From the sequence record OR525701.1: a stretch of DNA of 64,000 bases. One strand, 5' to 3'. The stretch's first letter is position 1; every line of letters starts with the position of its first letter. The notes beneath the pieces are model-generated. The model saw only the letters and a program-made list of their open reading frames with translations, ran no database searches and had not been told where the DNA came from. The position numbers were made by a program, and so were the translations under genes. This DNA is from Escherichia phage vB-Eco-KMB38. Below, one piece after another: positions 2,520-59,159 of the stretch.

Positions 2520-3620
2520 TTACGCTGTGAAGATTTTATCCCACATCGCAACAACTGCATCTCGATTATACTTCTTCCATACTGCTTCAGCACGTTTAAC
2601 TCGAGCTTCGTATGTGTCAGTGAATTCTAATACAGCTTTTGTGTAAAGCGCAACTACTTCTTTCTTAGGAGTAGAGGAATCAATTTCTACACGCACAGTA
2701 TCTGGGTCGTATTCGAATGTCGCATGAGGATAATCCTTAAAAACTAACTGGATTACAGGGACACCTTTAGAGATGGCTTCAATAGAACTATTCTCTACCG
2801 TACCTGTGTCAGGACATGTATTAATAAGTGCTTTAGCTGTTTTAAGACGTTCCATGATTTCACTGTGTGGAGCATCAATAATAACAGGATATTTAGCTGG
2901 TGGTGCCCATTTGCTTGGACAATAACCAATACCATTTTCGCCTAGTGCTTTAATTGCTTCAAGAGCAACATCAGTGCGACGCATCTTAGTGTCATAACGT
3001 TGAGCACTAATAATCAAATCAGTTGCCGGAAGAACTTCAGGTTTTTCATTCAAACAAATAACCGGGTAGTCATCAGGTTCAAATAATGGATTTTCACGCC
3101 AGTAGTCATAATCAATTTTGTCAGTAAGAGCTGAAGTCATATGACAATATTTACGTTCAAATTCACGGAAGGCTTTAGTAGGAGCATAGCTCTTCCCACC
3201 GTTCTTGTGAATCTGGATAGTCTGATCCCAAATTTGAACAATACCACGAGACACCGGTTCAAATGGCGTAGCCATAAAATTCTTATGAACTTTAGAGAGA
3301 CCTGCGTCTTTAATTGCTTGGACGGTTAGTTTAGTCGGTTCCATAGTAACAACAAAATCGTATTCATGGATGCCGGCTAGTTCAACAATCTTACGAGCCA
3401 TAGTATAACTCATACCTAGACTGAATTTAGTCAGATGACCAACAGGATGGTGTGTAACTTTCCAGTCACCAAACGTGTCATTATCAAAGCCGATATAATC
3501 AATATCAGCACCGATGGACACAAGATATTTCAACACATTTAAATGTACTGCTTCAAGTCCACCTTGTACACGGTCAGGATTAAATGGGACTGCACGAGAT
3601 GGGATAAACATAACTTTCAT
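2520..3620 (-). CDS. hypothetical protein, lineage-specific insertion between rIIA.1 and gene 39; candidate DNA sugar-transferase
   Basis: 366 aa ORF with no T4 counterpart at this position; followed by UUCG hairpin terminator; function inferred only from context. Confidence 0.6.
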   Translation of the reverse strand: MKVMFIPSRAVPFNPDRVQGGLEAVHLNVLKYLVSIGADIDYIGFDNDTFGDWKVTHHPVGHLTKFSLGMSYTMARKIVELAGIHEYDFVVTMEPTKLTVQAIKDAGLSKVHKNFMATPFEPVSRGIVQIWDQTIQIHKNGGKSYAPTKAFREFERKYCHMTSALTDKIDYDYWRENPLFEPDDYPVICLNEKPEVLPATDLIISAQRYDTKMRRTDVALEAIKALGENGIGYCPSKWAPPAKYPVIIDAPHSEIMERLKTAKALINTCPDTGTVENSSIEAISKGVPVIQLVFKDYPHATFEYDPDTVRVEIDSSTPKKEVVALYTKAVLEFTDTYEARVKRAEAVWKKYNRDAVVAMWDKIFTA

Positions 3621-17832: not shown

Positions 17833-18492
17833 TTAACCTCGATTCATAAATGCATTAAATATTTGGTCATCAACAGAAATTTCTAATTCGACTTCAATTG
17901 CTTCAGCCTTTTCTTCAGGTGGTAATTCGTATCCACACACTACAATTTTTTCATCGATATCAAAATACACAGAAGCAATATGATTAATGTTATTTTCGGT
18001 TAAGTCTAAATCAACATCAACATCTTTTTGACCTACACTTAAAGGATAACTAATACGGGTTATTTTATTATCTTTAACAAAGAGTCCACCGACATACTCT
18101 GTACTACGTTTGAAGTTTACACGTTTCCGAAATGAAAGATATGATGCATCTTTACCGTGAGCTCGGCTCATAGGACATAATGAATAGCTAGAATAAGAGA
18201 TGTCAAATCCTACACCTTCAATATGAGCCAACGCGTCATGATTAAACCAATTATAATCATATGCCAAATCCATTATATTGTAATATGTGAAAGGCACTGG
18301 ATTAACATCATACGTTGTACCTTTAAAATCTGCCCAGGCAACGATTTCGTTATCTTTAACAATTACAAAAATTACACCAATATGATATCCGTTATTATTT
18401 TCGTTCGGCGTTATATTATAACATTGTGCATTAGGAAATTTACCATATTTAAATGGTGCGTTTTTGTGCATGTAATAAATCATATTATTCAC
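17833..18492 (-). CDS. hypothetical protein
   Basis: 219 aa ORF. Confidence 0.6.
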   Translation of the reverse strand: MNNMIYYMHKNAPFKYGKFPNAQCYNITPNENNNGYHIGVIFVIVKDNEIVAWADFKGTTYDVNPVPFTYYNIMDLAYDYNWFNHDALAHIEGVGFDISYSSYSLCPMSRAHGKDASYLSFRKRVNFKRSTEYVGGLFVKDNKITRISYPLSVGQKDVDVDLDLTENNINHIASVYFDIDEKIVVCGYELPPEEKAEAIEVELEISVDDQIFNAFMNRG

Positions 18493-22633: not shown

Positions 22634-23777
22634 GGTCGTTTTCTATATCTGCTGCAGACGGAGCATCAGAAGTTTTAACCGGAACTTTAGTTGTTGCTTT
22701 GCAATTAATAAGGTCGTTAACCGCGTCATCAACTTCTTTAATAGAAGAGATAGCACCTAGTTTATATTTAGTTTCAATTGCATCTCGGAAAGGTTTGTGT
22801 TTAAACAACGGTCCCCAGAATTCTACACAATCAGTAGCTTTAGCACGCCATGATTTTTCTTCACGAATCATTTCACCTGTTTCTTCGTCAAGGAATTCAC
22901 GAGCATACCAACCAGCTTTAGGCTTAACCACAAAACCGATTTCAGTTGCCATTTCTAACAAGCCACTGAATGGGTCAATACCACCGTCGAAATTAACCGT
23001 GATCGGGAAAGTAGATTTCTCTTTAACTGTACGAGATTTTTCTGCTTTCAACGTGAAGTCATAACCAGTCAATTCTGTACCTTCTTTAACCTGACGTTTA
23101 GAGATAAAAAATACCGTGTTGGCGGAATAAAGAATACCTGTACCACCACCCATAATCTCTTTAGGATACAATCCGCCAATTTCCATTGCAGTATGGTTAA
23201 TTGCAACACATGGAATATCTTTAATAGTCAGATAAGGAGTCACAATGCGGAACAGAGATTTAAGTGCCTTAGCACGAGACATATCACCTACAACTTTCTC
23301 GTTCAATGCATCTTCAGTTTCTTTCTTAGATGCAGTATTACCGATTGAATCGATAAAGATAATAACTTTATCACCCCGTTCAATCGCGTCAAGCTGATTA
23401 GTCATATCAACTTTAAGTTGTTCGACAGATTGAATCGGAGTATGAACTACACGGTCTAAATCAACACCCATTGAACGAAAATAAGATTCTGAAGCACCGA
23501 ATTCTGAGTCATAAAACAAACAGATTGCATCTTTATATTTCTTCATATATGCTGCAACCATGGTCAGCCCAAACAATGTTTTAAAGTGTTTAGAAGGAGC
23601 AGCAAAAATAGTTAAGCCTGATTGCAACCCGGCATTCAGTGCACCACCTAGTGCAATATTCAACATCGGAATACGAGTAGGGACTTCATCACGATTATTA
23701 AACAGCTTAGACTTAGTCAAGTCTGCAGTCATTTTAGAAGTAGAAGCTTTAATCAGACGAGATTTTAAATCAGACAT
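22605..23777 (-). CDS. uvsX: UvsX recombinase (RecA-like)
   Basis: 390 aa; RecA-fold P-loop FAAPSKHFKT; T4 UvsX is 391 aa. Confidence 0.9.
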   Translation of the reverse strand: MSDLKSRLIKASTSKMTADLTKSKLFNNRDEVPTRIPMLNIALGGALNAGLQSGLTIFAAPSKHFKTLFGLTMVAAYMKKYKDAICLFYDSEFGASESYFRSMGVDLDRVVHTPIQSVEQLKVDMTNQLDAIERGDKVIIFIDSIGNTASKKETEDALNEKVVGDMSRAKALKSLFRIVTPYLTIKDIPCVAINHTAMEIGGLYPKEIMGGGTGILYSANTVFFISKRQVKEGTELTGYDFTLKAEKSRTVKEKSTFPITVNFDGGIDPFSGLLEMATEIGFVVKPKAGWYAREFLDEETGEMIREEKSWRAKATDCVEFWGPLFKHKPFRDAIETKYKLGAISSIKEVDDAVNDLINCKATTKVPVKTSDAPSAADIENDLDEMEDFDE

Positions 23778-23875
23778 TGTATTTTTCCATAGGCATCATT
23801 ATATTTTACTCATGTTTAAAAGATAAGATGATTATATACTAAGGGTTATACAGCATTTAAAACTTTAAATGGCTC

Positions 23876-24424
23876 TTAACGAGCCCATTTGATAATTTCT
23901 GTAATCAAATAATTACGTTCGCTTGCATTAAATCCTATAACTTTGTTAGCACCATCATGATTAAGTAATTGATACGTTTGGATTTTGTTATGAATTGCAA
24001 ACTCTTCAAAATGTGAAATGACTGTATTAAAACCGAATGAGGACAAAGTAATAAGGTCGTCTTCAAAACTTTCAGTCATTTCGTTACGTGTTAAAATAAT
24101 TGTGAACACATCATGGTTTTGGCAAAGACGAACATAATCCTGTTCATAAACGTCAAGAACCGAGTCCGCATCTTGTCGAATACGTCCATAAACCCAGTTA
24201 CTAATATATCCACGGTCTAACAGATAAATCTTAGTAGGGTCTAAATAATTCAACATCGTTTCGAAGCAGCCAACTTCATTTCGAGACTTAACATCGAAAC
24301 GCCCATCAACTGTTCGTTTAGGGAAATCAATCTTTACATATCTTTCACTAATTTCCATTATGTCATTAATGAAAGTTGTTTTACCAGCATTATCTGGGCC
24401 ATCTACTAAAATAATTTTAGCCAT
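23876..24424 (-). CDS. P-loop kinase-like protein (Walker A GPDNAGKTT), substrate unknown
   Basis: 182 aa; occupies the T4 beta-glucosyltransferase locus between uvsX and 42. Confidence 0.6.
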   Translation of the reverse strand: MAKIILVDGPDNAGKTTFINDIMEISERYVKIDFPKRTVDGRFDVKSRNEVGCFETMLNYLDPTKIYLLDRGYISNWVYGRIRQDADSVLDVYEQDYVRLCQNHDVFTIILTRNEMTESFEDDLITLSSFGFNTVISHFEEFAIHNKIQTYQLLNHDGANKVIGFNASERNYLITEIIKWAR

Positions 24425-24425
24425 T

Positions 24426-25325
24426 TTATTCCTCGATTACGACATCTTCATATTTAGGTATATTATACGGTGAAGAAATTAAAGCATTAAAGTAGATGAA
24501 CTCACCAAGACCTGGATGAAATACTTCTTCAGGATTTTCGAAATATTGAATCTTCGGACGTCCTTTAAGAATTTGATAGTACTCAGTTTTAGTTGGTTTA
24601 AAAATTCGAATCAGCGCTTCTTCAGGATACTTATTTCTGTCGAAGCTATTATTTGGATCGGTTATATAAAGCGGTTGACCTAATTGAATTGCACATTCAA
24701 CCACTTGTTCAAAACGATAGCATGGGTCACTAATTCGAAATGGATGAAAAATACCATCTAGATGAATAGGAGCCAAATCACCCACAAGACGCTGCATGAT
24801 GGAAGGACGTATAACTTTCTGAGTTACGATAATCTTATTACCATCTGCACCTGCGTTAACCAGCACTTCTTTTTGACGTTCATTCAACACAGTAGTTTGA
24901 AGTGAACGATTAACTGACAACATATCGGTTTTTAAGAATTCGTCAATATAAAAACGTGGTTTATTAGGGTCTGCCGTGATATTGAAATTGAATTCTACAT
25001 CAAAAGCGCCGTCATATCCAGTGATATCTGTTATTAGAAAATCACAATCATAATAAGCAATTAATGAATCAACCACAAATTCATTTTCAGACCAGAAATA
25101 TTTACGAGTGTTATACGCGTTATCTTTATACCATAATGGAACAAACTTAAATTCCGGGAAAAGACGTTCACATTCTTTAATATCAGATGCATTACGTGGA
25201 TATGTAATCACATCACCTGGATTAGCACGGTGCAAATGAAGTTGGAAGTTGCCATCCTTAAGGATAGCATACTGTCCAGTTTCATAAGACCGCATACTCA
25301 AGATAGGTACGCGGAAAATAGCCAT
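24426..25325 (-). CDS. hypothetical protein, candidate DNA sugar-transferase
   Basis: 299 aa ORF tightly packed between the P-loop gene and gene 42; no recognisable motif. Confidence 0.6.
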   Translation of the reverse strand: MAIFRVPILSMRSYETGQYAILKDGNFQLHLHRANPGDVITYPRNASDIKECERLFPEFKFVPLWYKDNAYNTRKYFWSENEFVVDSLIAYYDCDFLITDITGYDGAFDVEFNFNITADPNKPRFYIDEFLKTDMLSVNRSLQTTVLNERQKEVLVNAGADGNKIIVTQKVIRPSIMQRLVGDLAPIHLDGIFHPFRISDPCYRFEQVVECAIQLGQPLYITDPNNSFDRNKYPEEALIRIFKPTKTEYYQILKGRPKIQYFENPEEVFHPGLGEFIYFNALISSPYNIPKYEDVVIEE

Positions 25326-26041
25326 TAGTCAAGGAATCCTTTAACATAATCAAAATCACGTTCAAACACATGGGCACTTACCATGGTATGAGTATAATCA
25401 CCAACTTCTACACCGCATTCGTTAGCGATATAATGAAGTAATTTTCCTTGGAGATAAAAATCCAATTGCATAACAACAGCACAGTTCTGAGAACGCATAT
25501 GACAGTGGGTATAAAGCTTACCATCACGAATATAATAGGTCACTGAGTCAGTACATGGATATTCAAGCGTTTCGTCTGAATCAAGCAAAGCCTGATCAGA
25601 ACTTTCTAGAATTTGGAACACAACTCTTCGAGAGTTAGGTTTCTCTTTAAGTTCTTTTAGAAGAGCTGGTAATTGGGCCGCAATGCGAGGACCATAGAAA
25701 GTGTTGAAGTTCGCAGGCAAAGCATCTGATTTTGGTTTAGAAATGAATTTAGCGACATTAGGATATGCCTTAAACGCTTCTTCTGCATCAGTACCACCAG
25801 AAATCATAAACTTCCAGAAGTCTTCGGCATATTCATAAGAGATGCGGTTAATACGTGGGTCAGTCATTTTGAATGATGACGGAGTGTCAACAACTACTGT
25901 CATAGACCCAATTTCATTACAACGACCAATACGAGAATCAGTTACGAATTCCGGGTTTTCTAAAATTTCACGATTGACTGCTTTAAATGCGGTTTGAAAA
26001 TCTGCGGCTTTGATATATTTCATTGTGTTATGTTTTCCCAT
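25325..26041 (-). CDS. 42: dCMP hydroxymethylase (thymidylate synthase family)
   Basis: 238 aa; PNSRRVVFQI, YPCTDSVTYYIRDGK and HMRSQN segments parallel T4 gp42 as I recall it. Confidence 0.8.
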   Translation of the reverse strand: MGKHNTMKYIKAADFQTAFKAVNREILENPEFVTDSRIGRCNEIGSMTVVVDTPSSFKMTDPRINRISYEYAEDFWKFMISGGTDAEEAFKAYPNVAKFISKPKSDALPANFNTFYGPRIAAQLPALLKELKEKPNSRRVVFQILESSDQALLDSDETLEYPCTDSVTYYIRDGKLYTHCHMRSQNCAVVMQLDFYLQGKLLHYIANECGVEVGDYTHTMVSAHVFERDFDYVKGFLD

Positions 26042-26319
26042 GTTTACCTCAATACAATTTATTATATACTCAATTCATAAAGCTTATTTGAATTTCTTGG
26101 CAATGTTGATATAACGTAAAGCTTCACCATCAATACTTCCAAGAACACTATGAAGAAATGCATCAGCTTAGTATTCCAATTGAACAGGTTCTTTAATCAC
26201 TTTAGCCGCTTTGGTTTCAAACAGGCCCATCAGGGCCTTTTTAAGAATTTGTTCGTTAGTGTTCAGTTTTATAGTCAAAATCTTTTCATTAAGTTGGTGG
26301 TTAAAAGTTTTTCTAGAAA

Positions 26320-27480
26320 TCATTCCGGGTACCTCAAAGCGTCATCAGAGTTAGTTATATCAATAATAGATATAGAGTTTTCTGCTAACCCATTTTTAGA
26401 TAACTGACGTTTATAATATCTTTCACAATATGTACACGTCGTCCCGCAGATTTCATTAGCACAATCGAAATCTGGATGTCTGAACCACCTTTTTTCTAAA
26501 AAGCCATCTAACAAAGAGGTTTCAATATTTACTGTATGTGAAAACTCGGTCTCATTTTCAAGAGTGAAAATAGTCTCTAAAGGCTTCCACAGTTCTAACA
26601 AATTACCTTCAAACTTTTCAGAAGCGTATGCTTCAAGAACTTTCAAAATGTAGTCTGTGCTACCTGTACGTCCTGAAACTTTGAATTGAGTGATACCAAT
26701 ATCATTATAAAGTTTCAAATCTTGAGGACGAACAAAACGAGTTCTCAACCAGTTAAATGGGTCTGTATCACGAGCTTTAATACAGTGCTGCATAGGATAT
26801 CCGTTTAAGGATTTAGCATCATCAGCTGTAACATCAGTACTATGGAAAATATAGCAAGAGTCACGATAGCTACAATGTGTTGTATACCCTTTACCAGCAT
26901 TAGAACAGAACTCATTTACAAGAACTTCAAATATTATATTGTTCTTATTGCAAAACTCTGCTGCACGCTTCAGGAAAGAAACTGAACGGTTCTTATGAAT
27001 TCCACAGCAGACCTTTTTGATATTATACTGGTCATGCAAGTATTTGATTTGAGTTACAGCATCGACATGTAGAATTGTTGAAACTTCAATCTCAATGTCT
27101 TTATTGACTTCACGAACAATTTCCATAACAACAGGGTTAGCGATAGTAATACGCCATACGCCTATTGACCAAAGATACTGAACATAATCCTGAATAGCTT
27201 TCTTCTTCCACTCAACTAGTTCTCTTTTTGAACCAGGATTTATCGTGTTGAGTGTATAGTTAAAGCAAATACCTAATTCGTTACAACGTTTAACGTAATC
27301 TTCTAACATCTTTTTGTCAACGTCAGGAAGCCTAAAATCAGGTCTGGCTGCTACAAAAGCCATTTCTCTTGTAGAGCCGTATACTTCATTTATCAAGCTA
27401 TTAGGATAAGTTTTATTGAGCTCTACGATTTTATCAAGAAGAGCTAAATCAAAATTCGTTCCGATTTTAAAAGTATTCAT
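26320..27480 (-). CDS. Cys-rich enzyme of unknown function (tentative peptidase-U32-like/metal-binding)
   Basis: 386 aa; C-terminal CANEICGTTCTYC cluster and internal CSNAGKGYTTHCSYRDSC; part of island between 42 and 43. Confidence 0.6.
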   Translation of the reverse strand: MNTFKIGTNFDLALLDKIVELNKTYPNSLINEVYGSTREMAFVAARPDFRLPDVDKKMLEDYVKRCNELGICFNYTLNTINPGSKRELVEWKKKAIQDYVQYLWSIGVWRITIANPVVMEIVREVNKDIEIEVSTILHVDAVTQIKYLHDQYNIKKVCCGIHKNRSVSFLKRAAEFCNKNNIIFEVLVNEFCSNAGKGYTTHCSYRDSCYIFHSTDVTADDAKSLNGYPMQHCIKARDTDPFNWLRTRFVRPQDLKLYNDIGITQFKVSGRTGSTDYILKVLEAYASEKFEGNLLELWKPLETIFTLENETEFSHTVNIETSLLDGFLEKRWFRHPDFDCANEICGTTCTYCERYYKRQLSKNGLAENSISIIDITNSDDALRYPE

Positions 27481-27539
27481 TTTTTTGCATCTCGCGTTAA
27501 TTGATGCGATGGTTTTTTTTGCAGGTCTTACTTAAATTA

Positions 27540-27941
27540 TTATAGATTCGGTTTATACGATTTAAATGTTTCGAATTCGCCTTTATTCATAAGAGCTTTG
27601 AATTCGTCAGGACGCATAGCTTTGTCGTCGATAATCCAATCATATACTGGTTTATGTGTTAGCAAATTATGGTACTTCAAGCCAATGTTTGCCAAGTTCT
27701 GAATCAGACTTGGGAGAATGTCAATTGCTATACGACCAGGACCTACTGACTTCATACCGCGAGCAGTGTAAAGCGTTATGGTATGCCCTGCATCATACAG
27801 GGCATTAATGGCAGACACCATTTCGACGTCTGGTTTGAAGTTCACGTAATCACGATTGTTATTCCACTCTGTTATACAATCATCGACATCAAAACAAAGA
27901 TTAAGCATGTTTTCTACACGGCGCATTAGATTCGTTCCCAT
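27540..27941 (-). CDS. HAD-superfamily phosphatase-like protein
   Basis: 133 aa; N-terminal FDVDDCIT resembles HAD motif I; small cap-less HAD architecture. Confidence 0.6.
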   Translation of the reverse strand: MGTNLMRRVENMLNLCFDVDDCITEWNNNRDYVNFKPDVEMVSAINALYDAGHTITLYTARGMKSVGPGRIAIDILPSLIQNLANIGLKYHNLLTHKPVYDWIIDDKAMRPDEFKALMNKGEFETFKSYKPNL

Positions 27942-29611
27942 TGATGAGTGATATCGCCACCGATTGGACGATAGGAAACACCAGTTTCTTTATCAGTTAG
28001 TACCCATTTACCAGGATTTTTTGTAATCAGAGTAGCCGTTACAGGTTCTGCTACGTCATAACTAATAGAGCCGTCTTGAAGTACACGGCCCATATTACGT
28101 AATTGCTTAGTCAGAAGTTCCATACCTTTATAATATGCGGCTACCGCTTTAAGTGGATTATTCTTGAAATAACCACCTAATGCAATCCAGATAATTGCCA
28201 CTGCCAAATGATGATACTCGTTAAACGAACTCATCTTTCCATATTTGTAAACTAATGGATTGATGTTAATAGTCACATTACAAGTTGTTTCATCAATAGT
28301 AAACTGCCCCCAGGTCGGATTAGCGTTGAATTCATCATATCCTGAAACAGCGTAAAGCACTTTAGCTTCATCGTACAATTTTGGCCCGTAAATCTTGGTT
28401 TCACCAAAATATCCACGAGGGTCGATAAACTTGACTTCGCCGTTATCAGTAATCATAGTATTACTGAAGTTCGGGTCACCATGAATAACAGAGTACTGTC
28501 CCTGAGAACGGTTATGATAACGAATAAGGTGTTCTAAAGCTTGTTTCAGCATTGGCTTCAGACGTCCAATCTTAGTGTAGTTCACATGTGTGATTTTACC
28601 AAATGAATCAATCAATGGTTGAATGCTTTCACAACGATCAATAACTTTCGTATAGAATTCTTTAGTGAAATCACGACGAACAGTTTCAGGACTTACAAAA
28701 TAAGTGTCTGTGCTGAATTTCAGTGCATCTAAAATTGCATCAACAATTTGTGGACGAGCAAGACTTGATTTGGATTTAATATATTCAAATGCTGGCTTAC
28801 CTTTAATGCGTTCCATTTCAAAGTTATTTTCATTAACAGAAACTAACTGAGGAACTGAATCTGATTTCACTTTAAGATACCACGAAATCTCATCTTTCTG
28901 AAGAGCTCGTCCCTGTTCGGTTAATGCGAATTTAGTTACAGTTTCTTCACCAATTTCAACTGCATTAAAACTACGATTAAGTTCACGAACTTCATGAGCT
29001 TTTTCAAGTTTAGGCATATCACCTAAATCAATTAGATTCATAAGCTCTGATTTATTGAATGCGCTGCCGTAAAGGAATTCTACGAAATCACGTCCTTTGC
29101 AGTATTCATGAATTTCCTCATCAGTAGAACCCATATAGAATTCCCAGTCTTTGAACTGATAAATTCCTACAACATTACCACCTGTTGAACCTACGTTAGT
29201 GATATTTTCACCGTCGAAATTATATCGACATTCGTCACCCTTAACATAGATTGCGTTAACATTCCAAGACCATGAACCAAAATCAGGAATAATATCACAC
29301 CAGTTAACAATTACATTATGGCCGTCTAAATCTTTGTGTAATTTAGCAAGAGCATAAGCAGAACCATACGCTTCATCAACTGTACGAATAGTCACATTGA
29401 ACCCTTCTTGCTCACAATAAGCTCGAACGGTTTCAGCAAATTTTGAATGAACTACTACAATAATTTCATCTGCGCCAAGGTCAGAATAAATTGTATACAA
29501 ATTGCTCAGAATAGTGTCTTGTTTATAGTTAACAAGCACCTTAGGAATATGATGCGTTATTGGATACAAACGAGTTGCCAGTCCAGCACCAAGAATAACA
29601 GCTTTTTTCAT
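27926..29611 (-). CDS. bifunctional sugar-1-phosphate nucleotidyltransferase / sugar kinase (APH/choline-kinase-like)
   Basis: 561 aa; N-terminal AVILGAGLATRLYP nucleotidyltransferase motif; C-terminal IHGDPNFSN Brenner-type kinase motif. Confidence 0.7.
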   Translation of the reverse strand: MKKAVILGAGLATRLYPITHHIPKVLVNYKQDTILSNLYTIYSDLGADEIIVVVHSKFAETVRAYCEQEGFNVTIRTVDEAYGSAYALAKLHKDLDGHNVIVNWCDIIPDFGSWSWNVNAIYVKGDECRYNFDGENITNVGSTGGNVVGIYQFKDWEFYMGSTDEEIHEYCKGRDFVEFLYGSAFNKSELMNLIDLGDMPKLEKAHEVRELNRSFNAVEIGEETVTKFALTEQGRALQKDEISWYLKVKSDSVPQLVSVNENNFEMERIKGKPAFEYIKSKSSLARPQIVDAILDALKFSTDTYFVSPETVRRDFTKEFYTKVIDRCESIQPLIDSFGKITHVNYTKIGRLKPMLKQALEHLIRYHNRSQGQYSVIHGDPNFSNTMITDNGEVKFIDPRGYFGETKIYGPKLYDEAKVLYAVSGYDEFNANPTWGQFTIDETTCNVTININPLVYKYGKMSSFNEYHHLAVAIIWIALGGYFKNNPLKAVAAYYKGMELLTKQLRNMGRVLQDGSISYDVAEPVTATLITKNPGKWVLTDKETGVSYRPIGGDITHQWERI

Positions 29612-29644
29612 GTTGAAGTCCTCATTGGTAAGTAGGAGTATTGT

Positions 29645-29788
29645 ACACTATTCTAGTTAAAGCATTCATACTTTGCTTGTAGTCCAATCATAATCCATCC
29701 AATTACAAGTGTTGGAATCATTACCGGAGCCGTTAAGCTCCAGTAGATAGTCATGACAAGCATCAATAGTAAAAGTCCTATTGTTATT
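29645..29788 (-). CDS. small hydrophobic peptide (47 aa)
   Basis: hand-translated ORF MKAITIGLLLLMLVMTIYW... between SIS gene and kinase gene; below ORF-track cutoff. Confidence 0.3.
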
Positions 29789-29792
29789 GCTT

Positions 29793-30428
29793 TCATTGCT
29801 CGCCTCGTAACATGGCACCTAGTGCACCGCCAGGGTGGAACTTAAGGAAATCATTAGAGGTAAATCCACGTTCAGACGAAAGGTTGATAGCAAACGTATC
29901 GATAAGCGCTAACAACAATGTAGTGGACATAGTCGGAGCCAGAGAATTCTCATCAACCTCTACCGCGATGCCGGTGCAGAACGTATAATCAAAAAGAGCT
30001 TCGTATTCTTGTGGAATGTCAGGGTTACAATGTAACAGAATCTGTTTAACCTGAGGACGAATCATACGAAGATGTTTAGCAACACCTATCATTTCTTCAG
30101 TCTTACCAGAACGACTGATGTGGACTAATACATCATTAGGTGCAATAAATCCTGCGTCACCATGAGAATAATGCCCGGTATTCAAATACATGCTAGGAAT
30201 ACCTAGTGAAGCAAAAGTCTCGGAAGCTTTAGTTGCGATATTAGCATTCTTACCAACACCTGTAATAATTACCCGGCTTTCATAATTACTAAGTCCAGGG
30301 CGTCGAAGAGTTTCTAGAATAGCATTATAACGAGCAGGGTTTTGACTAATTACTTTAGCCATAGTGGCAAGAGATGAAGCTTGTTTTACGATTGCGTCAA
30401 TAGCGATAGTAATAGGAGTAGTTTTCAT
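29793..30428 (-). CDS. SIS-domain sugar-phosphate isomerase, arabinose-5-phosphate isomerase (KdsD/GutQ/KpsF)-like, no CBS domains
   Basis: 211 aa; VIITGVGKNANIATK..HGD..ISRSG and LAPTMSTT...FHPGGALG motifs parallel KdsD SIS domain. Confidence 0.75.
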   Translation of the reverse strand: MKTTPITIAIDAIVKQASSLATMAKVISQNPARYNAILETLRRPGLSNYESRVIITGVGKNANIATKASETFASLGIPSMYLNTGHYSHGDAGFIAPNDVLVHISRSGKTEEMIGVAKHLRMIRPQVKQILLHCNPDIPQEYEALFDYTFCTGIAVEVDENSLAPTMSTTLLLALIDTFAINLSSERGFTSNDFLKFHPGGALGAMLRGEQ

Positions 30429-30468
30429 ATTTCTCTCATTTAATTAGTTGGCCGTCCTTGGCATTATA

Positions 30469-33180
30469 TCAAAAATCAAACATATCGAACAGAGATGCTT
30501 TCTTCTCGTAATCGAGTTTCGCTGCTGATGTGAATCCTTCAAGTGGTTTAATAAATGTCTTCTCAAGGAGAACAGTGTAGTCCATCCAATGAAGTACATC
30601 GTCTTTAATTAAATCTGTGATTTCAGTACCAGAAGGCCATGCGATACATTTATCACCGAATGGGTTTCCTTCACGTAAAGGCAGAACATATACTTTTTCA
30701 CCTTCTACAACTTGTGGTGCATCAATATTACCTTTGATAGCTCGGTTATATGTCAGAATTCCACGAATATGGAACGGACATTTAGGACCAGGGAATCCAC
30801 CGACATCATATTTAGCAATGTTATTCGCAGAAGATACCGACGCGATGCTAATATAATTCAATTGACGGAATTCTTTTTCAAACTCTTTAAAATATTCTTG
30901 TAATGATTCTTCACCTTCTTGAAGCATACGACGAATACATTCTTTAAGAGCTTTCTGTACTGCTTTAGGGGTCGAAGATTTCTGAGTCTCTAGACCCATG
31001 ATTTTGAGTTTAGGCTCAGCGTAACGAGTGCCTTCCATATCCCACACGTTTAATGCATAACGTTTCTTACCAGTCCAGAATCCACCAATACCTTTAGAAC
31101 CGAGCGGAGGCCCAGCAATAGCTTCTCGGTCCATGAACATCAAATGTTGCTTATTATTCATGTATTCGCACATTTCACGGAAACCTCTATCAATAGCAGG
31201 TTCCATACGTTCACGAGCGAACTTATCTAAGAAGTCTACCCAATGGTTGGTATCACGGAATTTAGATTCACCAACCTTATCGATAATTTTATCAGCAGAT
31301 ACGTAAATAGAGTCTGTATCACCATAAAGAACGAAAGCTTCACCTTCTGTACCACAAACTTCATTCAGATATTCATTAACTTTACGTTCAATCCACTGTA
31401 AAGCCATTTGCCCGAATGTTGTGATTGCAGTAGCATTACGCAAATCATAATAACGGAACCAAACGTTTCCAAGTGCACCATAAAGTGAGTTGATAAGCAA
31501 TTTACGGTTAATTTGGGCAGTCATACCTGCAACTTCAGTACGTTGAGCTCTAAACAACATTTCATTAAGAGATTTAGCAGACAACTTTTTAATCTTTTCT
31601 TTAATCTCATCACTGAAGTCGAAACGATAATCAACATCTAATGGTTCGTCAACAGAAAGATTAGGATTATGCAATGCCTCTTTAATTATTTCACCATTAC
31701 GTTGAGCTGCAAGCATGTAACCTTTATGTTCTTTACGTTGATTAAAGACCTTAGTGATTTCAGTTGGAACTACACCATCACGGTCTTTATAATACATCAT
31801 GCCGTTAGGAGAGCAACTGTACACATCTGAAGGACGTTCAGCGATTGCGTTAATATAATCATGCAGTGGAGCTACTTTAAACGTTCCTGCTATTGTTTCC
31901 GGGCTAATATTCACTTGGCGAATAATACTTGGATACAGAGATGTAAGGTCGAAACTCATTACATATTTGTATCGATTTGGAATAGGTTCCTTAACAAAAG
32001 CGCCAGGATAAGGTTGAACCGGGTGAGAACGACCTTGTGGAATCACCTTGTTTTGTTCTTTAAGGCTATTAAAAATAATAGCATCCCAAGTTTTAATTGG
32101 ACTGAACACAGATTGAATCTGAATTTTAGCATAATAACCCATGTCCAAACTCAAGTTGATGAACTGACGCTTAGCATCAATTTGCAATACACGATATACG
32201 TCGATAATGTTATAAGAAATATATCGTTGGTGATTGCTTTCACGAAGTTTAGAAATAGGACCGTCGTATTTCAGTTTACCAACGTTCAATTCAAATTCTG
32301 AAATGTAATCCAGAGAATACGACGGTTGGTTCGTGAAAGAGAACTTTTTGTAAAGGTCAATGTAATCAAGAACAGAGATACCGAACAATGTAATGATTTC
32401 ACGAGAACCATACATGTTTTCGATAACTTTAACACGAGTTTTACGATGTGGTGATAAACGTTTCGCAGTAGATTCGCCAAAAATATTCTTGATTCGGTTA
32501 TACACATATGGAATATCAAATGACTCAACGTTCCATCCAGTCAAAATGACAGGAGTTTTCTGTTGCCAGAAGTTGAGATATTCCATCAACAATTCTTTTT
32601 CGTTATCGAACGGCATATAAATGATTTTATCGATAATTTCAGATGGAACTTCATCACCGCCTTGTTCTTGAAGCTTAGCAGCGATTTCAATAGACCATTC
32701 TTCTACATTACCATATGGAGAATTCAATAGATCAAATACGTAGAACCTGTCGTCAATTGAGTCATAATGGGTGATAGCATCAATCGGATGTTTTGCTTGT
32801 GACGGCTCAGGGAACCCATCCGGAGATGTTACTTCGATGTCGAAGTTAGCCACACGAATTTTTGTATGGTCGTATTTGATTTCATAGTTATAAGTGTCAG
32901 ACAAATACGCCAATTTGAAATCGTCCATGCCAAGTGCTTCAAGTCCGATATCTTCCATGCGTTTAATCCATTGGGAGGCATCACGCATATTAGCGAACAA
33001 CTTACGAGTACACGGCTTACCGTAGATATCGAAATATTTCGTAGCCTGACTTTCTGGACAATGAGCAAACAGTGATGGTTTATATTCTACTTCACGAGTA
33101 CGTTCACGGCCATTAGAATCGATGTAACGTTCAAAAATTGAATCACCAATCTGTTCAACCGTTAAGTAAAATTCTTTCAT
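30469..33180 (-). CDS. 43: DNA polymerase (family B, with 3'-5' exonuclease)
   Basis: 903 aa; exo motif FDIEVTS, pol motifs DLTSLYPSII and YGDTDS; sequence matches my recollection of RB69 gp43. Confidence 0.95.
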   Translation of the reverse strand: MKEFYLTVEQIGDSIFERYIDSNGRERTREVEYKPSLFAHCPESQATKYFDIYGKPCTRKLFANMRDASQWIKRMEDIGLEALGMDDFKLAYLSDTYNYEIKYDHTKIRVANFDIEVTSPDGFPEPSQAKHPIDAITHYDSIDDRFYVFDLLNSPYGNVEEWSIEIAAKLQEQGGDEVPSEIIDKIIYMPFDNEKELLMEYLNFWQQKTPVILTGWNVESFDIPYVYNRIKNIFGESTAKRLSPHRKTRVKVIENMYGSREIITLFGISVLDYIDLYKKFSFTNQPSYSLDYISEFELNVGKLKYDGPISKLRESNHQRYISYNIIDVYRVLQIDAKRQFINLSLDMGYYAKIQIQSVFSPIKTWDAIIFNSLKEQNKVIPQGRSHPVQPYPGAFVKEPIPNRYKYVMSFDLTSLYPSIIRQVNISPETIAGTFKVAPLHDYINAIAERPSDVYSCSPNGMMYYKDRDGVVPTEITKVFNQRKEHKGYMLAAQRNGEIIKEALHNPNLSVDEPLDVDYRFDFSDEIKEKIKKLSAKSLNEMLFRAQRTEVAGMTAQINRKLLINSLYGALGNVWFRYYDLRNATAITTFGQMALQWIERKVNEYLNEVCGTEGEAFVLYGDTDSIYVSADKIIDKVGESKFRDTNHWVDFLDKFARERMEPAIDRGFREMCEYMNNKQHLMFMDREAIAGPPLGSKGIGGFWTGKKRYALNVWDMEGTRYAEPKLKIMGLETQKSSTPKAVQKALKECIRRMLQEGEESLQEYFKEFEKEFRQLNYISIASVSSANNIAKYDVGGFPGPKCPFHIRGILTYNRAIKGNIDAPQVVEGEKVYVLPLREGNPFGDKCIAWPSGTEITDLIKDDVLHWMDYTVLLEKTFIKPLEGFTSAAKLDYEKKASLFDMFDF

Positions 33181-44804: not shown

Positions 44805-45275
44805 TTAATCATGTTTCCACACCCCATCGGTATTTGACCAAAGACGCTGATTATCTGATCCTCGCCACAGCTTTTTAGTCGGAAGATTTTTCTCATACTT
44901 CCCATCAATAATAACATCAACATATTTAAGCATTTCTAGTTGTTTAATATCTTCAAACTTATATCCTGTCCACAACCAAATGCTTTTATTGGGATAAAGA
45001 TTTTTTACTGTTTGAGCAATGCGATGAATAACATCTCGGTTATCAGGATAGAGAGGGTCTCCTCCGGTTATAGTTAATCCTTCTATATAATCATTATTCA
45101 AACATTCAATCAATTGTTCTAGTGTTTCACCAGTGAATGGAATACCATTTCTAGCATTCCATGTTGATTTATTATAACACCCTTCGCATTTATGCAAACA
45201 ACCCGTAACGAAAAGAACGACCCTGCAACCAGGGCCATTCACAAAATCGCAAGGATAAAATCTATCATAATTCAT
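44805..45275 (-). CDS. nrdG: anaerobic ribonucleotide reductase activating protein (radical SAM)
   Basis: 156 aa; CLHKCEGC (Cx3Cx2C); same length as T4 NrdG. Confidence 0.85.
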   Translation of the reverse strand: MNYDRFYPCDFVNGPGCRVVLFVTGCLHKCEGCYNKSTWNARNGIPFTGETLEQLIECLNNDYIEGLTITGGDPLYPDNRDVIHRIAQTVKNLYPNKSIWLWTGYKFEDIKQLEMLKYVDVIIDGKYEKNLPTKKLWRGSDNQRLWSNTDGVWKHD

Positions 45276-47089
45276 TGGTGTTTAACCCTATGCATGATTT
45301 CTTTATTTTTGCCGAGATTAAATCCGCGTTCGTTCGGATTTCCCAAATAACCACAAGTTCTTCTTATTGTGTTCATCTTTTTAGGGTCAGTTTCTCCGCA
45401 AACTGAACAAACAAATCCGTTTTCAGTAGGAGTCATTTCATGGGTACTTCCACATGTAAAACATTTATCTACTGGCATATTAACACCAAAATAATCTAAA
45501 TGTTGTGCGGCATAATCCCATACAGCCTCAAGACCTTTTAAGTTATTTTTCATATCAGGAAGTTCAACATAAGAAATGTGACCACCGGTCGCAATGAAAT
45601 GATATGGCGCTTCACGAGAAATCTTTTCAAACGGAGTAATATTTTCTTCTACTGAAACATGGAAACTATTAGTGTACCAGCCTTTATCAGTAACATCTTT
45701 TACACTTCCATATTTTTCTGTATCAAGTTTACAGAAACGATAACACAAGTTTTCAGCAGGAGTAGAATACAAGCTAAAAGCAAAACCGGTTCTTTCAGTC
45801 CACTGTTTAAGATGAGCATTCATTTTAGTTAAAATTTCTTGTCCAATATCACGACCGACAAGAATATTCAATTCGTGAATACCAATGTATCCTAGGGACA
45901 CTGAACTTCTACCGTTTTTAAATAACTCAATTATATCGTCATCAGGTTTAAGACGAACCCCGAATGCACCTTCTTGGTAAAGAATAGGAGCAACAGTCGC
46001 TTTAACTCCTTTTAAGGAACTAATTCTACACATCAAAGCTTCAAAACACAAATCCATTCGTTCATTGAACAATTCGGCAAATTTCTGTTCATTGAATTGT
46101 GTTCCAATATAAGAATCTAACGCAATGCGAGGAAGATTCAGTGTTACAACACCAAGATTATTGCGTCCATCAAGAATTTCATTACCAGTCGAATCTTTCC
46201 ATACACTCAAGAAACTACGGCAACCCATTGGAGAAACTGGAACTGAAGAACCAGTAATAGCTTTATTATTCTTAACCGAAATAATGTCAGGATACATTCT
46301 TTTGCTTGCACATTCTAACGCAAGTTGTTTAATATCATAGTTCGGATCATCTTTATAAAGATTAACACCTTCTTCAACGAACATAACAAGCTTAGGGAAA
46401 ATAGGAGTTATTCCATCACGACCAAGGCCTTTAATGCGGTTTTTAAGAATTGCTTTCTGAATCATTCGTTCAGTCCAGTCGGTTCCTGTACCAAATGTAA
46501 TTGTTACAAAAGGAGTCTGTCCGTTTGAACTAAAGAGAGTATTTACTTCATATTCATAAGCTTGGAATGCATCGTATACGTCTTTTTCTGTTTTAGATTG
46601 AGCATAATTCAACGCATCAGCGATTTGCCATTTTTCTGCATCTTCAACATGTTTAGCGTATGTGCGTTTAACATAAGGAGAAAGAACTTTATCGACATTC
46701 GCAAATGTAGTTCCGCCATATTGGTGTGAAGCAACTTGTGCGGTAATTTGTGCCATAATTGCAGTAGCAACGCCAATAGATTTAGGCGTTTCAATTTGAG
46801 CATTGCCTAATTTAAATCCATTCTCAAGCATCCCCTTTAAATCGACTAAACAGCAATTAGTAAATGGAAGAGCAGGAGAATAATCAATATCATGCATGTG
46901 AATGATTCCGCTTTCATGCGCATTCATAATAAAAGACGGGACCATATTTTTGGCAATGTGCTTAGACACAATACCAGCCATAAGGTCCCGTTGAGTTGGA
47001 AAAACACGAGAATCTTTATTAGCATTCTCGTTTAAAAGGTCTTTATTAGTTTTATGAATTAATCCTTCAATTTCTTTTTCAATTTTCAT
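45272..47089 (-). CDS. nrdD: anaerobic ribonucleoside-triphosphate reductase
   Basis: 605 aa; C-terminal Zn site CFTCG...CSVCG and glycyl-radical motif RTCGYLG; uninterrupted. Confidence 0.9.
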   Translation of the reverse strand: MKIEKEIEGLIHKTNKDLLNENANKDSRVFPTQRDLMAGIVSKHIAKNMVPSFIMNAHESGIIHMHDIDYSPALPFTNCCLVDLKGMLENGFKLGNAQIETPKSIGVATAIMAQITAQVASHQYGGTTFANVDKVLSPYVKRTYAKHVEDAEKWQIADALNYAQSKTEKDVYDAFQAYEYEVNTLFSSNGQTPFVTITFGTGTDWTERMIQKAILKNRIKGLGRDGITPIFPKLVMFVEEGVNLYKDDPNYDIKQLALECASKRMYPDIISVKNNKAITGSSVPVSPMGCRSFLSVWKDSTGNEILDGRNNLGVVTLNLPRIALDSYIGTQFNEQKFAELFNERMDLCFEALMCRISSLKGVKATVAPILYQEGAFGVRLKPDDDIIELFKNGRSSVSLGYIGIHELNILVGRDIGQEILTKMNAHLKQWTERTGFAFSLYSTPAENLCYRFCKLDTEKYGSVKDVTDKGWYTNSFHVSVEENITPFEKISREAPYHFIATGGHISYVELPDMKNNLKGLEAVWDYAAQHLDYFGVNMPVDKCFTCGSTHEMTPTENGFVCSVCGETDPKKMNTIRRTCGYLGNPNERGFNLGKNKEIMHRVKHQ

Positions 47090-47559
47090 TTTAAACTCTT
47101 TCTAAGCTGCTTTTTGAATGAAGCTATTAATTGTGTTTTAGTATCTGATTCATTATATTCAAATCCTCTTTGAAGCATCTCGGTCATCATTTCCTCTTTA
47201 CCTAGTCTTGAGAACTCTTTAGTTTTGTCTGGAACAAAATTAGGATGGATATTATTATCAGAATAATCTTGTTTCAAATAAGCGAGAAGAGCTTCAAGCC
47301 ATTCTAGGTAGTCGACATCACGGCCTTTAAGACCAGAACGGTTGAACTTATGCTTCATTTGACCTTCTGCTGCGTTGCACAGATTACAGAGTAATCCACG
47401 AACTCTACCGGCTTTTGGCCCGTTTAATTCATGGTCGTGGTCAAGATGGTTACCTTGAACATCAGGGTCTAATTCACGGTGGCAAATAGGACACTTACCG
47501 TTCTGTGCATCATAAAATTTTTGTTTTTCTTCTTTATATTTTGCGCCTGATAATAACAT
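47086..47559 (-). CDS. 49: endonuclease VII (Holliday junction resolvase)
   Basis: 157 aa; near-identical pattern to T4 endo VII (CPICHRELDPD...HLDHDHELNGPKAG). Confidence 0.9.
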   Translation of the reverse strand: MLLSGAKYKEEKQKFYDAQNGKCPICHRELDPDVQGNHLDHDHELNGPKAGRVRGLLCNLCNAAEGQMKHKFNRSGLKGRDVDYLEWLEALLAYLKQDYSDNNIHPNFVPDKTKEFSRLGKEEMMTEMLQRGFEYNESDTKTQLIASFKKQLRKSLK

Positions 47560-58566: not shown

Positions 58567-58598
58567 CAAAAAGCCCCAACCTTTCGGAAGGGGCTTTG
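58567..58598 (-). terminator. terminator hairpin, copy 2 of 36-bp direct repeat, overlapping rI stop
   Basis: identical to 57944-57979 core (AAAAAGCCCCAACCTTTCGGAAGGGGCTTTGATTAG). Confidence 0.6.
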
Positions 58599-58599
58599 A

Positions 58600-58902
58600 T
58601 TAGATAGATGTAGGCTCTAATTTTATTTTCATGAACTCGGCAAATTGTCTGGCAGTTTTTATGCCTTGTTCCTGGCATTCAAATGCATCATCACAGGGGC
58701 TATTTTTGTAATGCTTTGCCATATACTTATAGAATTTTTCAGAATTCTCGACATTTTGAATTTCGAACAAAGTATATACGTTTTTAATCCCTGATTCCAT
58801 AAAGTTATCAAAGTACGGGTCAACATATGCAGTGCCAACAATAGGAGTCGTTGCTGCAAAAAACCCCAGCATCGCCACAATGGCTATCGCTCTTAAGGCC
58901 AT
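58600..58902 (-). CDS. rI: lysis inhibition regulator RI (periplasmic antiholin)
   Basis: 100 aa; signal-anchor N-terminus; VDPYFDNFMESGI...CDDAFEC parallels T4 RI as I recall it; adjacent to tk. Confidence 0.75.
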   Translation of the reverse strand: MALRAIAIVAMLGFFAATTPIVGTAYVDPYFDNFMESGIKNVYTLFEIQNVENSEKFYKYMAKHYKNSPCDDAFECQEQGIKTARQFAEFMKIKLEPTSI

Positions 58903-58914
58903 ATAGGCCTCCTG

Positions 58915-59127
58915 TTAATTTTGGCCAGTATTTATTTTTCGCCTTTGGACGGCCTTAACATCTGCGAGGTATTTTTCCAGCTTGCGCTTGCGTGTATAAT
59001 CAGCTTTAGAACCAGTTTGACGGATATCCTCGTTTAAATGAGAAATAGAATGTCCTAATTCTCTTCGGATTTCATCCAATTGGGTTACAGTAAGATTACG
59101 AAGTTGTCTTTCGTTTAATTGCTGCAT
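58915..59127 (-). CDS. small hypothetical protein (rI.1 position)
   Basis: 70 aa ORF. Confidence 0.5.
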
Positions 59128-59151
59128 ATATACCTCTTGGTTAGATATTAG

Positions 59152-59159
59152 TATTTATA
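59152..59159 (-). promoter_or_regulatory. T4 late promoter TATAAATA
   Basis: exact TATAAATA on minus strand about 25 nt upstream of 58915..59127 start. Confidence 0.5.

Follow-up and report, generated by a model that had tools for sequence, protein, structure and literature searches.

What is a cysteine-rich protein of the Peptidase-U32 fold doing among the sugar genes of a phage DNA-modification island? The question is raised by Escherichia phage vB-Eco-KMB38 (OR525701.1), of which a stretch of 64,000 nucleotides, called the window here, was analysed. At 26320-30428 a block of four genes lies between the DNA polymerase gene (gene 43) and the gene of a thymidylate-synthase (TS) homolog. An earlier note, made from the DNA letters, had described this block and its flanks, and ORF calls confirm both, with all four ORFs on the minus strand at the coordinates given there. 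Our overall reading, which we hold to be fairly probable, is that the island is the system by which RB69-type (Mosigvirus) phages hypermodify their DNA with arabinosyl-5-hydroxycytosine, and in which the U32 gene would provide a second, oxygen (O2)-independent route of hydroxylation.

The island itself is already known: a first proposal dates from 2018, and its characterisation from 2025-26. What is of interest is the U32 gene (26320..27480, minus strand; 386 aa, homolog of RB69 gp50) and its virus-wide association with enzymes that make prephenate. We infer that the U32 protein is not a sugar enzyme. Our tentative proposal, which we place somewhat short of probable, is that it is a prephenate-dependent, O2-independent hydroxylase of cytosine C5, likely working on dCMP, and an anaerobic counterpart of gp48, the TS homolog of RB69.

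Neighbours of the U32 gene across viruses

Prephenate is the product of chorismate mutase, and the pathway leading there starts with DAHP synthase. Two proteins of the U32 family, UbiU and UbiV, need prephenate as co-substrate, and it is the demonstrated oxygen donor for ubiquinone (PMC10990095). In the case of RlhA, genetic evidence indicates that C5 hydroxylation of cytidine in rRNA needs Fe-S and prephenate (PMC5727448, PMC10990095).

We found the same enzymes next to U32 genes in phages. In Enterobacter phage Entb_45, the stop codon of the U32 gene is overlapped by a 79-aa ORF for a chorismate mutase (Pfam CM_2 2.4e-10, above the gathering score). Homologs of the phage chorismate mutase occur in 56 phage records, and the T4-like ones are located beside U32 and/or the TS gene. 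Four divergent members keep the AroQ catalytic residues (Arg/Arg/Lys/Glu/Ser/Gln) invariant. In Shewanella phage Thanatos-1, the U32-chorismate mutase pair is found after a kinase gene and not before TS, and this changed location indicates that the two genes travel together.

To look further, IMG/VR was scanned with a profile of the U32 subfamily, which gave 47 viral loci, and five metagenomic contigs were included as well. Neighbouring genes were scored with hidden Markov models built from sequences gathered in the analysis. Chorismate mutase is present in 13 of the 15 T4-like U32 loci from IMG/VR. Considering only the 36 distant loci, with U32 identities of 40-56%, six have a stand-alone chorismate mutase abutting U32, five have a DAHP-synthase/chorismate-mutase fusion abutting it, and two have DAHP synthase alone, which gives a prephenate-pathway neighbour in 13/36. 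Four of the DAHP_synth_1 neighbours carry a fused CM_2 domain. Fusions of a type-I-beta DAHP synthase with a C-terminal chorismate mutase lie by U32 at L045:8411-9433, L048:7302-8357, L049:8332-9387 and L059:11079-12197, and IMG/VR contigs L018 and L034 have DAHP synthase alone. A reading of the DAHP_synth_1 neighbours as Kdo8P synthases, which use D-arabinose-5-phosphate (Ara5P), was rejected, with DAHP-synthase models scoring 124-237 bits against 47-63 for KDO8P synthase. Our literature search found no paper on phage shikimate-pathway genes in the context of U32.

A second group of neighbours relates to DNA glycosylation. A GT299-like glycosyltransferase, homologous to the 299-aa protein of the island (24426..25325), is found in 17/36 distant loci, and seven such genes end at or overlap the U32 start. 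Genes resembling AfhE, the fused kinase and nucleotidyltransferase of the island, are present in 18/36, and isomerase-like genes in 10/36. On the other hand, no TS-family gene was found in any of the 36 (one marginal match, 3e-4) within flanks of 6-10 kb per side, less at contig ends; E. coli ThyA, used as positive control, was detected by the same model at 2.8e-10. In one locus (L054), the genes for phosphatase, glycosyltransferase, isomerase, AfhE and U32 form a tight run, and 19 kb of sequence contain no TS homolog.

Other U32 loci contain dCMP deaminase, Pol III alpha and uracil-DNA glycosylase (UDG); a TAGT-type glycosyltransferase, dUTPase/DCD and UDP-galactopyranose mutase; or NT5C, a deoxynucleoside kinase (dNK) and a PnuC-like transporter. 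Such neighbourhoods indicate that the U32 subfamily is a phage enzyme of DNA precursors or of DNA modification. In many phages, judging from gene content, U32 appears to take the place held in RB69 by the TS-type hydroxylase.

The same neighbourhoods may be read differently, with the U32 protein taking part in sugar synthesis by reducing or epimerising the pentose or the pentose nucleotide. AfhE-like and isomerase-like genes do neighbour U32 in many distant phages and, in the window, the U32 gene sits inside the sugar block, co-oriented with it and close to the phosphatase gene. The TIM-barrel of U32 proteins is common to many sugar-phosphate enzymes, and gp50 homologs have received sugar-type labels from Lee et al., in the Bas46 record and in the Durham-collection paper. 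We consider a sugar role unlikely, since sugar genes are missing altogether from some U32 loci, which carry dCMP deaminase, Pol III and UDG, or dNK and NT5C, instead. In addition, the recurrent partner of U32 is chorismate mutase or DAHP synthase, neither of which has a role in pentose chemistry. The published donor route points the same way: PMC13326640, citing He et al. for AfhE and AfhF, gets from ribulose-5-phosphate (Ru5P) to UDP-D-arabinofuranose (UDP-Araf) with no enzymes other than the isomerase, AfhE and the AfhF phosphatase.

The U32 protein, its distribution and its proposed role

The 386-aa protein matches Pfam Peptidase_U32 (7.3e-11) and contains 13 Cys. Like the isomerase and the gp45 homolog of the window, it is 97-99% identical to its RB69 counterpart. 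Its AlphaFold2 model, with a predicted local distance difference test (pLDDT) score of 93.4, has a TIM-barrel fold. Profile comparison (hhalign) with E. coli TrhP, RlhA and UbiU gave 96.7% probability (E 4e-10), with only about 20% identity to proteins of this type, and a sequence search against the PDB returned no match at E <= 1.

Nine Cys are invariant in the alignment of the subfamily (85 members). Of the four [4Fe-4S] ligands of characterised U32 proteins, three (TrhP C170, C177 and C197) are matched in the alignment by C203, C209 and C233, and C192 is a candidate for the fourth, the spacing of the four being CX10CX5CX23C. The canonical spacing for U32 [4Fe-4S] proteins is CX6CX15CX3/4C (PMC6747719), and this motif was looked for in the subfamily and is not present. 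Four further invariant residues (C340, C345, C349 and C352) form a C-terminal CX4CX3CX2C motif. With a shared fold and non-canonical Cys spacing, the protein is a divergent relative of the U32 hydroxylases and belongs to no characterised subfamily. As a separate observation, residues 340-352 read CX4-CGxTCxYC, and their CX3CX(aromatic)C pattern resembles a radical-SAM cluster motif; two metagenomic loci (L006, L007) have radical-SAM/SPASM genes in the vicinity of U32.

The names given to this protein vary considerably. RB69 gp50 is listed as a "sugar or heterocycle reductase" by Lee et al., from a fold match to the U32 protein 5D88 (Table 1 of PMC13326640), and the gp50-type protein of the Durham paper is labelled "epimerase" (PMC13390438). 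Homologs elsewhere are reported as peptidase or collagenase-like protease in GenBank, and as a UDP-arabinose enzyme in Bas46. Lee et al., whose paper is later than those of He et al. 2026 and Mahler et al. 2025, do not assign a specific function to gp50 (PMC13326640). Taken literally, the Pfam family name and the GenBank labels would make the protein a collagenase-like peptidase with no part in DNA modification. This is hardly credible, as the characterised U32 members (UbiU/V, TrhP and RlhA) are Fe-S proteins linked to hydroxylation and not peptidases (PMC10990095, PMC6747719, PMC5727448). The nine invariant Cys and the invariant neighbourhood of nucleotide and prephenate genes speak against it as well.

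In terms of likeness to these characterised members, the viral proteins share with RlhA, TrhP, UbiU and UbiV the TIM-barrel and Cys at three of the four cluster ligands. The link to prephenate is genetic for those four, and for the viral subfamily it is one of gene adjacency. The target of RlhA is C5 of cytosine, the same ring position as the one proposed here. The differences concern architecture and substrate. The viral proteins are without RNA-binding or second U32 domains of the RlhA/TrhP type, and have the extra C-terminal CX4CX3CX2C. Their presumed substrate is a deoxynucleotide or DNA, whereas RlhA and TrhP give ho5C2501 in 23S rRNA and ho5U34 in tRNA, and UbiU/UbiV act in anaerobic ubiquinone synthesis.

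These likenesses also allow for an RNA hydroxylase like TrhP or RlhA, acting on tRNA (ho5U34) or rRNA (ho5C2501) and fed by the phage chorismate mutase. All nucleic-acid-linked U32 proteins act on RNA and need prephenate, TrhP/RlhA homology is detectable in our protein, and T4-like phages encode tRNAs. We nevertheless regard this as quite unlikely, because the subfamily is only remotely related to TrhP/RlhA, with another Cys pattern and without their C-terminal domains. Moreover, its neighbours are consistently genes of DNA precursors or DNA glycosylation, including GT299-like glycosyltransferases immediately upstream and, among GenBank phages, U32 is found only in those with the 5-hydroxy-dCMP system.

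We next compared the distribution of the U32 protein with that of the sugar genes. U32 is present in 221 GenBank phage records, all at least 81.6% identical, whose named hosts are all Enterobacterales or Shewanella, with none from Acinetobacter. AfhE is present in 376 GenBank phage records, 57 of them from Acinetobacter. Acinetobacter phage Lazarus has annotated isomerase, AfhE, AfhF, TS and glycosyltransferase genes and nothing between AfhF and TS. Dhakavirus VR5, a phage of E. coli, has AfhE, AfhF, TS and glycosyltransferase and is also without U32. The published cluster genes of DLP3 include no U32, and its DNA is tri-arabinosylated (PMC13326640). The Acinetobacter phages and Dhakaviruses, which have the cassette without U32, therefore indicate that U32 is not needed for the sugar route. 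This counts against the sugar role considered above and against the earlier note, which had placed the Cys-rich protein in the sugar pathway.

Across genera, U32 has 79-87% identity, compared with 59-79% for DNA polymerase and 51-72% for AfhE. In three of four genus comparisons no other protein of the region is as well conserved, UvsX being slightly higher in Entb_45.

The subfamily is almost exclusively viral. A search of 100,044 prokaryotic species (one genome each) gave only seven hits, in Romboutsia (two), Erysipelotrichales, a Bacillota metagenome-assembled genome (MAG), Tannerella, Phocaeicola faecalis and a BRC1 MAG. The lineages other than the BRC1 MAG are anaerobic. In three of the seven loci, a chorismate mutase gene lies next to U32 or not far from it. 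The Phocaeicola faecalis locus (L075:2996-7089), a cellular or prophage cassette, has genes for a GP88-family protein, a guanylate-kinase/SAM-methyltransferase fusion, a protein of ~265 aa and U32. The GP88-to-U32 cassette is found again in L007/L008, followed by NT5C, a PnuC-like transporter, deoxynucleoside kinase, radical-SAM/SPASM, a second U32-like protein and a deoxyribosyltransferase. The content of this cassette in L075 and L007/L008 suggests hydroxylation of a nucleotide followed by O-methylation.

As for oxygen, the window encodes the anaerobic ribonucleotide reductase NrdD (45272-47089; Pfam NRDD 3.9e-171) and its activase NrdG (44805-45275; Fer4_12 1.8e-48, with Radical_SAM), both on the minus strand and directly before endonuclease VII (gp49; 44805-47559 in all). 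A dCTPase is also encoded. The presence of NrdD/NrdG and of the dCTPase indicates that the phage replicates in anoxic hosts while excluding cytosine. The known hydroxylase depends on O2, yet the phage destroys dCTP and has an anaerobic reductase, which raises the question of how 5-hydroxycytosine is obtained without oxygen. Indirectly, O2-independent hydroxylation is also suggested by the hosts of the U32 subfamily, which are facultative or strict anaerobes. Acinetobacter, the host of Lazarus, is an obligate aerobe. Lazarus has gp55, nrdH, a small ORF and gp49 at the syntenic site (58594-60230), with no nrdG/nrdD, so that its lack of U32 and chorismate mutase parallels the loss of the anaerobic reductase. 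Petrov et al. 2010 report nothing on the distribution of nrdD.

Putting these observations together, the U32 protein would supply a second, O2-free route to the cytosine 5-hydroxyl, probably at the level of dCMP, with prephenate as oxygen donor, as proposed for RlhA, TrhP and UbiU/V. This would allow cytosine replacement when a facultatively anaerobic host grows without O2. Lacking a chorismate mutase gene, the phage would depend on host PheA/TyrA for prephenate. In RB69-like phages, U32 would then be the anaerobic twin of gp48, in the same manner as NrdD compared with NrdAB, or UbiU/V with UbiI/H/F. The wider form of the proposal, which we put forward with equal reserve, is a mainly viral subfamily of prephenate-dependent, O2-independent pyrimidine-C5 hydroxylases acting on DNA precursors or DNA. 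In many uncultured phages, U32 would be the sole hydroxylase feeding DNA glycosylation, and many of these phages would bring the means of making prephenate along, in the form of a chorismate mutase or of a DAHP-synthase/chorismate-mutase fusion.

Several points weigh against a prephenate-dependent hydroxylase. No U32 protein has so far been shown to hydroxylate in vitro (PMC10990095), and the canonical Cys motif is missing from the subfamily. The count of 0/36 for TS genes is a statement about flanking DNA only. Dhakaviruses infect E. coli without U32, which means that in enteric hosts this chemistry can do without the protein. Prephenate also feeds the synthesis of carboxy-S-adenosylmethionine (Cx-SAM), which has a precedent in phage DNA modification (PMC12783734), so the link to chorismate mutase does not point uniquely to hydroxylation. 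No paper tying U32, prephenate or chorismate mutase to phage 5-hydroxycytosine was found in a search that did not extend to He et al. 2026 and Mahler et al. 2025, and these two may assign or exclude a role for gp50.

The window itself adds to this side. Chorismate mutase and DAHP synthase were searched for in the window, and neither is encoded. At 26084..26323 (minus strand), the position taken by chorismate mutase in other genera, lies the homolog of RB69 ORF049c, with 79 codons. Only this position, the 79-codon length and the 4-nt overlap with U32 are shared with those chorismate mutases. The idea of a degenerate chorismate mutase was rejected, with no CM_2 or NCBIfam match, a BLASTP E value of 6.9 and 0.1% in hhalign. 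In the window this ORF is interrupted by an in-frame TAA at codon 52 (26168-26170, TAC in the intact form), whereas RB69, JK45 and Bas46 have the intact 79 aa. Unlike all its neighbours, it shows 4 synonymous versus 6-7 nonsynonymous codon differences.

If the proposed function is true, a U32 enzyme would for the first time have a role directed at DNA. This would explain the chorismate mutase and DAHP synthase genes encoded by viruses, and give a new reason for viral shikimate-pathway genes. DNA modification based on 5-hydroxypyrimidines would then extend to many uncultured phages without a TS-type hydroxylase. It would also be of relevance for phage therapy at anoxic body sites, and would offer a small, soluble system with a nucleotide-level substrate for in vitro assay of U32/prephenate hydroxylases.

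Donor sugar and acceptor base

The first sugar gene encodes a SIS isomerase (29793..30428, minus strand; 211 aa), homolog of RB69 gp55 (204/211 identical). It matches Pfam SIS (8e-10) and NCBIfam KpsF/GutQ (8.8e-32) and KdsD (3.8e-30), and its PDB matches include 3etn (1e-24) and the arabinose-5-phosphate isomerase 2xhz (2e-18). The protein consists of the SIS domain only, without the CBS pair of KdsD/GutQ. It is predicted to be a D-arabinose-5-phosphate isomerase, converting Ru5P to Ara5P.

Next, the AfhE-type bifunctional enzyme (27926..29611, minus strand; 561 aa) is 99.6% identical to RB69 ORF53_52c. Pfam NTP_transferase was found at residues 3-99 (8.5e-10), with weak matches to kinase families at 344-409, and the cytidylyltransferase 1jyk was matched in the PDB at 2e-5. 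A GxGxRL motif and the catalytic-loop motif HGDPNFSN are visible in the translation. The C-terminal APH/choline-kinase-like domain is a putative 1-kinase of Ara5P, and the N-terminal domain a putative uridylyltransferase giving UDP-D-Araf.

The third gene encodes a HAD phosphatase (27540..27941, minus strand; 133 aa), homolog of RB69 gp51, with a DVDD motif and a match to the capsule-biosynthesis HAD phosphatases of NCBIfam TIGR01689 (4.3e-13). In the PDB it matches 9IQW, a "capsule biosynthesis protein" (8.6e-87), and 1xpj (5e-10). It is predicted to be of the AfhF type, taking arabinose-1,5-bisphosphate (Ara-1,5-P2) to arabinose-1-phosphate (Ara-1-P). AfhF structurally resembles heptose-1,7-bisphosphate phosphatase (PMC13326640). 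These matches and PMC13326640 bear out the isomerase, phosphatase and nucleotidyltransferase-kinase classes given by the earlier note.

The donor route has been described for phage HY126 by He et al. 2026, of which we have the account cited in PMC13326640. By this account, the isomerase gives Ara5P, AfhE turns it into Ara-1,5-P2, AfhF strips the 5-phosphate and AfhE then makes UDP-D-arabinofuranose. For the window, the SIS isomerase would thus convert ribulose-5-phosphate to Ara5P (step 1), the C-terminal kinase domain of AfhE would phosphorylate C1 to give arabinose-1,5-bisphosphate (step 2), the AfhF-type phosphatase would take off the 5-phosphate (step 3), and the N-terminal nucleotidyltransferase domain of AfhE would produce UDP-D-arabinofuranose (step 4).

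Regarding the base, the TS homolog (25325..26041, minus strand; 238 aa) is identical to RB69 gp48 at 238/238 positions. It matches PDB entries 9IQC/9IR2/9IQU at 4.5e-162 and, from the alignment, is identical to 9IQC at 235/238 positions. The neighbouring identifiers of 9IQC and 9IQW suggest that these structures are HY126 AfhA and AfhF. A MAFFT alignment with E. coli ThyA was not relied on, since a 2-residue gap shifts the D169/N177 signature positions. RB69 gp48 makes 5-hydroxy-dCMP from dCMP, needs O2 as seen by 18O2 labelling, and has flavin bound (PMC13326640). Its identity with the window protein indicates that the base is 5-hydroxycytosine and not 5-hydroxymethylcytosine (hmC). The TS homolog is thus a 5-hydroxy-dCMP synthase by identity, and not the dCMP hydroxymethylase (gene 42) from which the earlier note had derived hmC.

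Mass spectrometry (MS) and nuclear magnetic resonance (NMR) of RB69 DNA gave mono- and di-arabinosylated 5-hydroxycytosine, with an ether bond at C5 and no methylene (PMC13326640), and the Durham-collection paper reports the same arabinosylated base for the Mosigvirus NP (PMC13390438). Considering all phages of this kind, arabinosyl-5-hydroxy-dC in virion DNA or UDP-Araf synthesis has been reported for RB69, NP, Bas46/47 and HY126 (PMC13326640, PMC13390438). The earlier suggestion of an NDP-arabinose donor for DNA modification matches what is published for RB69 and HY126 (PMC13326640). Its statement that T4-type glucosylation is lacking agrees with PMC6024577 and PMC13326640 for RB69, although no search for glucosyltransferases was made in the window.

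Two glycosyltransferases are candidates for the last step. The first is the putative DNA arabinosyltransferase 1 (24426..25325, minus strand; 299 aa), homolog of RB69 gp46:47 and 99.7% identical to the Bas46 protein. It has no Pfam or PDB sequence match, and the arabinosyltransferase assignment of the gp46:47 type, with its fold, is taken from Table 1 of PMC13326640. The putative DNA arabinosyltransferase 2 (2520..3620, minus strand; 366 aa) lies outside the island and corresponds to RB69 ORF003c, which has been described as a second DNA arabinosyltransferase (PMC6024577, PMC13326640). This ORF was likened to RB69p003 by position and not by sequence, having the same length, coordinates and rIIA/gene 39 flanks. 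Finally, a thymidylate-kinase-like nucleotide kinase (23876..24424, minus strand) is 180/182 identical to RB69 gp45, with a weak dTMP-kinase P-loop match, and the gp45 kinase is listed in Table 1 of PMC13326640. The TS homolog would convert dCMP to 5-hydroxy-dCMP with O2 and flavin (step 5) and, after incorporation, the two glycosyltransferases would add one or two arabinoses to the 5-hydroxyl (step 6).

As transferred by protein identity, steps 1-6, comprising donor route, base and glycosylation, would be those established for 97-100% identical proteins elsewhere. We are highly confident that work on near-identical proteins has established both the sugar branch and 5-hydroxycytosine as the acceptor. 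Indeed, the Afh system of RB69, HY126 and Bas46-47 has the same genes in the same order from uvsX to gene 43, with proteins 97-100% identical to RB69, and its sugar pathway shows no substantive difference. The island explains the restriction- and CRISPR-resistant DNA of RB69-type phages used in therapy and as models.

A different scheme had been drawn from the window alone in the earlier note: four sugar genes, passing through free arabinose, and NDP-arabinose added to hmC made by a gene-42 hydroxymethylase. The enzyme classes fit this scheme, arabinosyl-hmC was the base originally reported by Thomas et al. 2018 (PMC6024577), and the wording of the phosphatase and kinase steps in Table 1 of PMC13326640 still follows it. 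As a whole it is very improbable. The identity of the TS homolog with gp48, a producer of 5-hydroxy-dCMP, is against it, as is the ether link at C5 without methylene seen by NMR and MS (PMC13326640, PMC13390438). The published order, as He et al. are cited in PMC13326640, has no free arabinose: the kinase acts on Ara5P and the bisphosphate is then dephosphorylated, giving Ara5P, Ara-1,5-P2, Ara-1-P and UDP-Araf in turn. In addition, U32 is dispensable for arabinosylation in other phages.

Two known systems help to place this arabinosylation of 5-hydroxycytosine. The ADP-heptose pathway (GmhA, HldE/HldA, GmhB, HldE/HldC) has the same order of isomerase, anomeric kinase, distal HAD phosphatase and nucleotidyltransferase, and in HldE kinase and transferase are fused, as in AfhE. 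It differs in using a heptose for lipopolysaccharide, whereas the island handles a pentose (Ru5P/Ara5P) and brings a UDP-furanose onto DNA. Also, its kinase is ribokinase-like, while that of the island is APH/choline-kinase-like. The hmC glucosylation of T4 occupies the same neighbourhood (uvsX to gene 43), with a modified dCMP made by a TS homolog, full replacement of C and glycosylation on DNA. The handle is a hydroxymethyl made with folate in T4 and a hydroxyl made with flavin and O2 in our phage. T4 takes UDP-glucose from the host, in contrast to a phage-made donor and different glycosyltransferases here.

Layout and conservation of the island

The window covers the left 64 kb of a T-even phage that resembles RB69 and belongs to the genus Mosigvirus. 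Its gene 43 (30469-33180) encodes an RB69-type DNA polymerase, and the left-end gene coordinates are the same as in RB69. The module between DNA polymerase and uvsX was described in RB69 in 2018, with ORF055c and ORF53_52c proposed as UDP-arabinose genes (PMC6024577), and the Bas46 GenBank record of 2021 labels the island genes as UDP-arabinose genes. The pathway had thus been proposed, annotated and, by 2025-26, characterised, and was not undescribed as the earlier note had supposed.

In terms of conservation, 152 phage records span at least 80% of the block at 95-99% DNA identity, and a 4.4-kb query region has 97.7-98.7% identity to the 40 best-matching Mosigvirus genomes. Codon differences relative to Bas46 and RB69 are overwhelmingly synonymous (nine synonymous to one nonsynonymous in the U32 gene), which indicates that the island ORFs are real genes under selection. 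The GC profile of the island is not distinct from its flanks, and so gives no sign of recent foreign origin. A search for sigma-70 promoters and terminators in 23700-30600 gave 21 promoters against 26 in shuffled sequence, and 5 terminators against 3.6, and is uninformative on operon structure.

The ORFs at 24426-25325 and 27926-29611 are single and intact, while in the GenBank record of RB69 each is divided in two (gp46/gp47 and gp52/gp53). Published work attributes these splits to sequencing errors, which agrees with our finding.

Two small co-oriented ORFs were missing from the earlier note. One is the interrupted ORF049c homolog at 26084-26323. The other, at 29653..29796 (minus strand), encodes a transmembrane-like product of 47 aa and overlaps the isomerase gene by 4 nt. 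It lies between the isomerase and AfhE genes and is found at the same position, with 58-64% identity, in LC53, Entb_45 and VR5 (phages of the genera Winklervirus, Kanagawavirus and Dhakavirus), and the LC53 record labels it "Transmembrane segment(s)". For this hydrophobic product, a role in membrane anchoring or in regulating the pathway is conceivable.

Among GenBank records, the island of Shigella phage JK45 (MK962757) comes closest (98.7%). This phage is filed under Tequatrovirus although its island is of the Mosigvirus type; the filing is probably a classification error in the record.

Lastly, outside the island, a 219-aa ORF at 17833-18492 (minus strand) has a full-length match to Pfam AdfA (anti-DarT factor A) at 4.7e-121. 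AdfA is a known counter-defence gene of T4-like phages.

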